Of a stretch of DNA of 571 bases, positions 1-471 are shown in pieces. A model generated the notes under the pieces. It was given only the letters and a program-made list of their open reading frames with translations. It ran no database searches and had not been told where the DNA came from. Position numbers and translations under genes: made by a program. This DNA is from Escherichia coli (GTDB lineage Bacteria; Pseudomonadota; Gammaproteobacteria; Enterobacterales; Enterobacteriaceae), in NCBI RefSeq assembly GCF_003334385.1, contig NZ_QOWN01000165.1, one strand, 5' to 3'. Within the stretch, counting starts at the first letter, position 1; every line of letters begins with the position of its first letter.

Positions 1-471
1 TGGTGGCTGGTCTGCCGGGGGACGATTCATAAGTTCCGCTGTGTGCCGCATCTCACCGGGCGGCGCTTTGAGCACGGTGTGACGGACTGTTACACACTGT
101 TCCGGGATGCTTATCATCTGGCGGGGATTGAGATGCCGGACTTTCATCGTGAGGATGACTGGTGGCGTAACGGCCAGAATCTCTATCTGGATAATCTGGA
201 GGCGACGGGGCTGTATCAGGTGCCGTTGTCAGCGGCACAGCCGGGCGATGTGCTGCTGTGCTGTTTTGGTTCATCGGTGCCGAATCACGCCGCAATTTAC
301 TGCGGCGACGGCGAGCTGCTGCACCATATTCCTGAACAACTGAGCAAACGAGAGAGGTACACCGACAAATGGCAGCGACGCACACACTCCCTCTGGCGTC
401 ACCGGGCATGGCGCGCATCTGCCTTTACGGGGATTTACAACGATTTGGTCGCCGCATCGACCTTCGTGTGA
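1..471 (+). CDS. K: Tail tip assembly protein K-like, 5'-partial: C-terminal NlpC/P60 peptidase domain preceded by the end of the N-terminal (JAB/MPN-type) domain. The true start lies upstream of the window.
   Basis: Frame +1 is open from position 1 with no stop until TGA at 469..471; the ORF-track start at 43 is only the first in-frame GTG. Translation from position 1 reads WWLVCRGTIHKFRC, then VPHLTGRRFEHGVTDCYTLFRDAYHLAGIEMPDFHREDDWW...SSVPNHAAIYCGDGELLHH...AASTFV. This matches my recollection of the C-terminal ~156 residues of phage lambda protein K. NlpC/P60 hallmarks are present: catalytic Cys in the D-C-Y motif (codon 88..90) and a conserved His in VPNHAAIY (codon 286..288), followed by a His-His pair. 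Identity call is from memory, not a database search. Confidence 0.92.
   Translation, partial: WWLVCRGTIHKFRCVPHLTGRRFEHGVTDCYTLFRDAYHLAGIEMPDFHREDDWWRNGQNLYLDNLEATGLYQVPLSAAQPGDVLLCCFGSSVPNHAAIYCGDGELLHHIPEQLSKRERYTDKWQRRTHSLWRHRAWRASAFTGIYNDLVAASTFV
351..357 (+). promoter_or_regulatory. Probable Shine-Dalgarno element for gene I, embedded in the K coding sequence
   Basis: Purine-rich AGAGAGG at 351..357, with the GAGG core ending 11 nt upstream of the I start codon at 369. The spacing is at the long end of the usual range, and the site must also encode K residues (KRER region), so it is constrained by both functions. Confidence 0.4.

Follow-up and report, generated by a model that had tools for sequence, protein, structure and literature searches.

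The K/I gene pair of phage lambda is the closest described system. Its I product (UniProt TIPI_LAMBD, 223 aa) is encoded at the same locus, with K stop, ATG, and 103-nt overlap all identical, and there is no difference of substance to the DNA described here. The K/I overlap is already known—it has stood in the lambda annotation for decades and is not a discovery—and a literature search for a discussion of it found none. K is predicted to process I (Iyer et al. 2006, PMC1779556), and a functional link between the two also features in a conference report of Davidson's work (PMC12908700). In virions, gpI was found by mass spectrometry and cryo-EM, the latter resolving only residues 134/135–223 of gpI and showing no gpK (PMC10721106, PMC12617516). 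The K/I families at large share the Pfam domains PF14464, PF00877, and PF06805, the gene order, and the enzyme–substrate logic; only the lambda/Stx/Fels-1/P400 clade has K reaching 55 nt into the I domain.

Long overlaps between co-directional genes are otherwise known mainly as errors. [quoted passage not shown] 2008, PMC2478687). The longest real case, holD/rimI (at most 56 bp; PMC2478687), is likewise a co-directional, out-of-frame 3'/5' overlap that related genomes conserve at both protein ends. In comparison, K/I is about twice as long (103 nt, and no less than 64 nt if the most conservative start is taken), includes folded segments of both proteins, and is located in phage or prophage DNA. 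The Rz/Rz1 pair of lambda and other overprinted phage genes also feature out-of-frame dual coding on one strand with both products functional and, plausibly, an origin by overprinting. Rz1, however, lies wholly inside Rz. In K/I, two ancient genes of wide conservation overlap tail to head, and overprinting has affected no more than a short, lineage-specific extension of each. Coupled pairs of the ATGA/GTGA type are likewise adjacent and co-transcribed, with the downstream start inside the upstream ORF; in K/I, by contrast, 100 nt separate the I start from the K stop downstream of it, and I is served by a strong Shine–Dalgarno (SD) sequence of its own.

The K/I junction in the window

The window—the whole 571-nt stretch of Escherichia coli DNA analyzed—is open in frame +1 from base 1 to the TGA at 469–471, and this K frame ends in ...AFTGIYNDLVAASTFV followed by the stop. 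Frame +3, the frame of I, has a TGA at 333–335, is open from 336, and features a first ATG at 369–371 and a second in-frame ATG at 408–410. The stretch 369–471 is common to both frames on the same strand and comprises 103 nt or 34 codons per gene. A preliminary description of this DNA had reported such an out-of-frame overlap between the 3' end of K and the 5' end of I, and both the frames and the lambda annotation bear it out; the geometry itself places the initiation of I within the translated K ORF. The length, which had been called unusual, is so in light of the survey cited above, where none of the 715 overlaps of this kind longer than 60 bp in cellular genomes was judged real (PMC2478687).

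The window is 99.7% identical to lambda 14405–14975 and differs from it by two substitutions, for example at residue 50 of I, which is Val here and Ala in lambda. Its closest relative is phage PhiR30_1 (99.8%). Lambda-type records place K at 14276..14875 and I at 14773..15444, which gives an identical 103-nt overlap, and the same K/I geometry is annotated in records of about 80% identity (Fels-1, Stx1 phage). The junction occurs in 4,229 of 5,426 complete E. coli genomes, with roughly 9,000 prophage copies in E. coli. For 34 codons, the chance that an alternative frame stays open is (61/64)^34, approximately 0.2, which is not improbable on its own; the overlap goes beyond chance because the K stop and ATG 369 are conserved and the substitutions are of the coding type in both frames. 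The locus is most probably—at a rough probability of 0.78—a genuine K/I junction of a lambda-type phage or prophage that is dual-coding and features independent initiation of I at ATG 369. The features are collected in Table 1.

Table 1. Features of the window, with the parsimony changes per site in its coding zones
Feature	Position	Strand	Details
Gene K, 3' part (tail tip assembly protein K, JAB + NlpC/P60 peptidase)	1..471	+	Frame +1; from translation, lambda-type annotation, and Pfam
Gene I, 5' part (tail tip assembly protein I)	369..571	+	Frame +3, start ATG 369
Dual-coding overlap	369..471	+	103 nt; K residues 215–247 plus stop; I residues 1–34
Shine–Dalgarno AGAGAGG for I	351..357	+	Inside the K codons Arg-Glu-Arg; GAGAGG = 352–357
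I N-terminal leader, residues 1–13, MAATHTLPLASPG	369..407	+	Precedes MARICLYGDL...; lies over the last K strand
Second in-frame ATG, I Met14	408..410	+	Pfam domain and distant homologues begin here
I beta1–helix–beta2, residues 15–32, of the ubiquitin-like beta-grasp domain	411..464	+	From AF2, Foldseek, and I-frame periodicity
K C-terminal alpha-helix, residues 230–245, ASAFTGIYNDLVAAST	415..462	+	AF2 helix 230–245, pLDDT about 77; lambda-clade-specific
Near-invariant block, K AFTGIYNDL / I GDLQRFGRR	421..447	+	All codon positions conserved except site 437
GTG overlapping the K stop (GTGA)	468..470	+	PGAP choice, 190-aa I; judged not to be a real start
Predicted I N-terminal peptides		+	From 369: (M)AATHTLPLASPGMAR; from 408: (M)ARICLYGDLQR
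K-only zone	1–335		6.74 changes/site at K wobble; 3.24 overall
Zone of the leader	369–407		0.31, 1.15, and 1.38 changes/site at the three phases; 0.95 overall
Zone after Met14	408–468		0.40, 3.80 (I wobble = K second position), and 1.24 changes/site; 1.80 overall
I-only zone	472–571		6.91 changes/site at I wobble; 3.38 overall

The two gene products

The 247-aa K protein carries a Prok-JAB domain (PF14464) at residues 3–104 and an NlpC/P60 domain (PF00877) at 111–224, that is, the JAB/MPN metalloprotease domain fused to an NlpC/P60 papain-like domain that characterizes TAPK. The window holds only the NlpC/P60 part and the tail. The AF2 model of K, computed from a family alignment, has a mean pLDDT of 89 and features a last strand at 219–225 and a C-terminal helix at 230–245; Foldseek relates the model to JAMM1, Rpn11, and CSN5-type deubiquitinases and to MepS-type NlpC/P60 peptidases. 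The last strand of the NlpC/P60 domain (...KWQRRTHSLWRHRA) is encoded by the same bases as the I leader, at 369..407. In an alignment of 15 K proteins, conservation stops at the invariant R224 (WRH), and most homologues end 2 to 11 residues later, whereas K of the lambda clade has a tail of 23 residues beyond R224. The core motif of this tail, SAFTGI[Y/C]NDL, is invariant in 160/160 sequences.

The I protein features the N-terminal ThiS/MoaD-like beta-grasp domain, the Gly-rich linker, and the C-terminal structural domain of the Lambda_tail_I/TAPI family. The Pfam model Lambda_tail_I (PF06805) matches residues 14–97 of gpI over model positions 2–83 of 83 (E 2e-28). In the AF2 model, likewise computed from a family alignment, beta1 spans residues 15–19, a short helix 21–26, and beta2 29–32, with a pLDDT of 76–85 over residues 11–90 and residues 1–8 disordered. 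Foldseek with the N-terminal domain returns SAMP1, MoaD, and Urm1 at a target TM-score of about 0.7, and the PDB chains titled Tail tip assembly protein I are the identical protein. Residues L19, G21, and G27 are invariant in the family alignment of 18 I proteins. According to the same alignment, the leader is confined to the lambda/Stx/Fels-1 group; it is predicted to be disordered, lies outside the Pfam domain, and may be dispensable.

Selection in both reading frames

Altogether 206 related loci were assembled from viral-contig scans and annotated records, and these yielded 162 unique intact junctions: 160 of the lambda/Stx/Fels type (at least 70% nt identity) and two Yersinia P400-like ones. 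The viral-contig scan with lambda gpI returned only loci of 98 to 100% identity, and the divergent ones were obtained with Stx-type, Fels-1, and P400 queries. Substitutions were counted as Fitch-parsimony changes on an NJ tree of the 160 sequences and, in addition, classed by their effect in each frame relative to the mutational expectation (NN/NS for I, NN/SN for K). Since lambdoid phages are mosaic and recombine, these counts and the p values should be taken as approximations; the differences from zone to zone are large, and each of the two subclades shows them.

The K stop lies at 469 in all 162 unique intact junctions. Upstream of the overlap, in 1–368, changes in K fall mainly at its wobble position. 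This wobble position changes far less often inside the overlap, with 1.5 changes per site in 372–407 and 1.25 in 411–468 compared with 6.4 upstream, and the I wobble position behaves similarly, with 1.25 and 4.0 changes per site in the same two stretches compared with 6.9 downstream. A suppression of synonymous variation in both frames had been predicted and is seen across the 160 junctions, with approximate Mann–Whitney p values from 3e-6 to 0.03. The ratios of the effect classes point the same way: in 411–468 they amount to 0.11 for I (NN/NS) and 0.38 for K (NN/SN), and in 372–407 to 0.14 for I and 0.09 for K, whereas phantom untranslated frames in the flanks give 1.6 to 1.7. Purifying selection is, hence, found in both frames across the overlap, as is characteristic of a dual-coding pair, and judged by these substitution patterns the overlap is genuine.

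The two frames are not equally constrained. With a dN/dS-like ratio of 0.38 compared with 0.11, the K tail is under weaker constraint than I, and the K second positions 404, 407, 413, 437, and 449 have changed 4 to 26 times each, so parts of the K tail tolerate replacement. The claim that every base of the overlap is under dual constraint holds in as far as both frames are selected; as a statement about every base it goes too far, given the variation at these five sites and the laxer K tail. The near-invariant block has only six changes in 26 sites compared with about 3.3 per site in the flanks, the exception within it being site 437 with 26 changes. In the leader, K-synonymous changes drop to 2.2 per site-equivalent over 369..407 compared with 5.2 to 7.7 upstream, and codons P12 and G13 (sites 404 and 407) vary at the I wobble position. 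For the most part, the leader is conserved owing to the strong constraint on the K frame, and the independent support for its translation consists of few substitutions (37 changes in 372–407).

The start codon of I

Identical lambda gpI is annotated in three ways: with 223 aa from ATG 369 (518 contigs), with 210 aa from ATG 408 (999 contigs), and with 190 aa from GTG 468 (at least 1000 contigs). The shortest form is the one given by PGAP in the RefSeq E. coli genomes examined and by the phage record PhiR49_2, and a 190-residue gpI was used in one review (PMC7291167), while PDB depositors use the 223-aa protein. NCBIfam contains no model for gpI and, therefore, does not explain the start chosen by PGAP. 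A published direct determination of the gpI N terminus was not found; for gpI from virions, PMC10721106 reports a single peptide, which it does not specify.

ATG 369 is present in 160/160 lambda/Stx/Fels-type sequences, down to about 70% nt identity, and is always the first start of the I frame, as a stop at 333, 345, or 363 precedes it in all sequences. The SD/anti-SD duplex in front of it has an energy of -7.1 to -9.3 kcal/mol (about -8.7) at a spacing of 9 nt, again in 160/160 sequences. Its conservation extends to positions at which K would be free to vary: the K-wobble sites G354 and G357 inside the SD have 0 changes compared with 7 to 11 at the nearby wobble sites 345, 351, and 360, and A369, the wobble base of a K Lys codon, has 0 as well. 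The Stx-type sequences (51 unique) carry CTG at 408 and no other start before 468; in this group alone, 411–468 shows 0.84 changes per site at the I wobble position compared with 0.10 to 0.11 at the other two. Lacking a start between 369 and 468 and yet featuring I-frame periodicity, they must, therefore, start at 369. Shine–Dalgarno sequence and start codon covary across the clade. The P400-like phages have CTG or TTG at the 369-equivalent position, an in-frame I stop just downstream, and no SD there, and instead feature GGAGG 7 nt upstream of the TTG at the 408-equivalent position. Read from these sequences, their I demonstrably starts at the latter position, and 369 would be the start of I—also the one used in vivo—in the lambda/Stx/Fels-1 group.

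The main competitor is a start of lambda I mostly at ATG 408 (Met14, 210 aa), which would reduce the overlap to 64 nt and leave 369 and the leader little used or unused. The family speaks for this position: the Pfam domain begins at residue 14 with model position 2, distant homologues align from residues 14 to 24 and have only 3 to 7 residues ahead of beta1, the P400-like phages use the position with a strong SD, and the 210-aa form is, as noted above, widely annotated. Codon 408 is ATG in 109 sequences—without exception in those of the lambda/Fels type—CTG in the 51 of the Stx type, and TTG in the two Yersinia P400-like ones. The lambda-type SD at 408 is weak, though, with a mean duplex energy of about -2.3 kcal/mol, the I frame of the Stx-type phages is under coding selection despite their CTG, and SD and ATG at 369 are kept at K-synonymous sites. 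Moreover, K-synonymous variation falls right after 369, also within the lambda/Fels subset (0.75 compared with 3.8 to 4.7 per site). A predominant start at 408 is, thus, considered unlikely, while some contribution, even a substantial one, is conceivable in lambda-type phages given a leader that is outside the Pfam domain, absent elsewhere, and predicted to be disordered. Far less probable still is initiation at GTG 468, by which I would have 190 aa, the junction would be an ordinary coupled one of 4 nt, and the long overlap would be an artefact of annotation. NCBI PGAP and some phage annotators call this start, with the contig numbers and the review given above on their side, GTGA is a classic coupling motif, and annotated overlaps longer than 60 bp are mostly errors (PMC2478687). 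Such a protein, however, would be deprived of beta1 and beta2 of the ubiquitin-like fold together with the family-invariant L19, G21, and G27, although 411–468 features I-frame purifying selection (NN/NS 0.11) and wobble periodicity. The codon has no SD (+0.6 kcal/mol) and is unconserved, being ATA in Fels-1 and GTA in P400. On the grounds of fold, selection, SD, and non-conservation, GTG 468 was rejected as the I start, and it is the short annotation that is regarded as the artefact.

Two further readings leave the starts aside and are both very remote. One holds that 369–471 owes its conservation to an element at the RNA or DNA level, for example a structure or a linker for recombination, instead of to two coding constraints. 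In favor of it count the mosaic nature of lambdoid phages, for which recombination at conserved junction sequences has been proposed, and the conservation of the block 421–447 at all three codon positions. The residual variation nevertheless follows codon periodicity, each conserved I-wobble site is a K second position, and each conserved K-wobble site falls on a first position of I in motifs that the family conserves. RNA structure in particular was rejected as the cause: the fold of 330–480 is no better than that of shuffled sequences (z = +1.0, with 175 of 200 shuffles at least as stable). The other reading takes the overlap as the site of a programmed -1 frameshift that produces a K–I fusion, in the manner of the lambda G/GT tail chaperone. 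The I frame is indeed -1 relative to K, K–I fusion ORFs exist in databases, the PHROG family phrog_28576 matches both proteins as one profile, and rare TAPI fusions were noted by Iyer et al. 2006 (PMC1779556). A slippery X XXY YYZ heptamer in the K frame of 336–468 was, however, found in none of 160 sequences, and a stimulatory RNA structure is absent. A synthetic K–I fusion query against 5.8 billion sequences returned about 30 fusion ORFs, each of them a singleton cluster, whereas the clusters of separate 247-aa K have thousands of members. The junctions of these ORFs are scattered over K 208–247 and I 1–42, several at an ACACAC slippage tract. In place of a conserved trans-frame product the databases, thus, contain sporadic singletons, which are indels or assembly errors, and the programmed fusion was rejected for want of a heptamer and because of this scatter. 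Five loci with 1-nt indels were also rejected as natural fusions, as their indels lie at window positions 22–248, in the K body and outside the overlap.

Relatives and origin of the overlap

To compare relatives independently of annotation, the position of the K stop was measured relative to the codon aligned with beta1 of I. The K stop lies 55 nt past beta1 in all 78 unique junctions of the lambda clade; this includes the P400-like ones, with an I protein of only 38% identity. In every further relative whose K is intact, the stop lies at +5 nt or less, without intermediates, and in most relatives K does not run past the I start but ends there or shortly ahead of it. The annotated K/I overlap of these other relatives is 1 to 26 nt or none (8 nt in phi80, 1 to 4 nt in T1-like phages), and in HK022 the two genes are separated by a moron gene. 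In the alignment of 18 I proteins, the relatives have 3 to 7 residues ahead of beta1. Because +55 nt faces +5 nt or less without anything in between, the long overlap is read as a discrete and derived state of one clade, which, by the order of events that the sequences suggest, would then have been frozen.

The simplest route would be an extension of the K frame by overprinting over the 5' end of I, followed in the lambda/Stx/Fels-1 group by a shift of the I start 39 nt further upstream. Position 408 is the family-typical and probably the ancestral start of I, and ATG 408, which had been named as a possible alternative start, fits this as the position that the Yersinia P400-like phages use; in lambda-type phages it may act as a minor second start. 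In frame +1 the present overlap encodes the end of the NlpC/P60 domain and the predicted C-terminal K helix; in frame +3 it encodes the leader of 13 residues and, from the ubiquitin-like domain of I, the first beta-hairpin. I would be initiated at ATG 369 from an SD of its own (GAGAGG), and ribosomes would, thus, load inside the K frame. The K peptidase is reported to process I in tail-tip assembly. The overlap would serve compaction and co-expression and would have no dedicated regulatory function beyond these. [quoted passage not shown] This combination is speculative and, on balance, doubtful.

Translational coupling and a fixed stoichiometry of K and I, both of which had been suggested for the overlap, are not supported by these data. 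I has its own strong SD, and SD and ATG are mostly unpaired in the predicted fold, so the ribosome-binding site is neither missing nor sequestered. Coupling calls for a K stop within a few nucleotides of the I start, and the two are about 100 nt apart once GTG 468 is rejected; termination–reinitiation is implausible because the K stop lies 100 nt downstream of the I start. The relatives with overlaps of 1 to 26 nt and HK022 with its moron gene also argue against coupling, and those relatives that lack the overlap indicate that the module works uncoupled. As for stoichiometry, K is a non-virion enzyme, whereas I is a structural protein at three copies (PMC10721106, PMC12908700).

Consequences for annotation

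With both frames under selection and a length above 100 nt, K/I appears to be a true case of co-directional overlap, a category for which the survey contains no real case above 60 bp. It is an unusual true positive that the ortholog-length rule of Palleja et al. (PMC2478687) would misclassify, and this rule probably explains the truncated automated annotations of I. In the 190-aa gpI, the ubiquitin-like domain, which gpK reportedly cleaves off, is without its first beta-hairpin, and modeling or expressing gpI from the 190-aa records means working with a truncated domain.

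Gene K and its junction with gene I

The K protein belongs to the tail tip assembly proteins and carries a JAB and an NlpC/P60 peptidase domain. The classical annotation of lambda K (199 aa, start at 14276) cuts the JAB domain, which is complete in a 247-aa form (Prok-JAB, residues 3-104) that starts directly after gene L. This longer form is the one that makes up clusters of thousands of database sequences, and it is predicted to be folded, with a pLDDT of 89.

Features at and around the K/I junction
Feature	Position	Location or source
K 5' extension	L001 (compared locus) 1228-1371; lambda about 14132-14275	upstream of window
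Moron gene between K and I	L089 915-1139	HK022
Moron gene after I	L088 1864-2322	phi80
CACACAC dinucleotide repeat	window 381-387	

As the moron gene insertions in HK022 and phi80 show, K and I do not have to be adjacent. The I homologues of Pseudomonas phage BR322a (L097) and Vibrio phage p41 (L098) lack an intact adjacent K homologue, and variants without a flanking gene were also recorded by Iyer et al. 2006 (PMC1779556). In Serratia phage Bigdog (L093), K features a tail of ~24 residues past the conserved RH motif and overlaps I by only 8 nt; a long K tail can therefore occur without a deep overlap.

Frame changes and variable sites

Several independent K–I fusion ORFs in the databases switch frame at the CACACAC repeat, with the junction reading ...KWQRRT|LPLASPG..., which suggests that the repeat is a hotspot of either slippage or sequencing error. 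The profile phrog_35166 matches the JAB domain of K (3-83) and then I (13-210); by these matches, it is a JAB–I fusion architecture and resembles the one fusion, from an E. coli prophage, to which Iyer et al. 2006 (PMC1779556) refer.

Single-base indels occur in the K body of L049, L039, L298, L290, and L259 (window-equivalent 22-248), and none of them falls into the overlap. The five loci probably belong to prophages in decay or reflect errors of assembly. On the tree of junctions, position 437 of the window changed ~26 times as one site within an otherwise invariant block of 27 nt—the change converts Tyr to Cys and back in K and is synonymous (Leu) in I—either because the site mutates repeatedly or because two haplotypes recombine. 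In the cluster of the 223-aa gpI, some members that match lambda gpI exactly or almost exactly are labeled Campylobacter jejuni and Mycobacterium tuberculosis; most likely, these entries stem from lambda or vector contamination of the assemblies.
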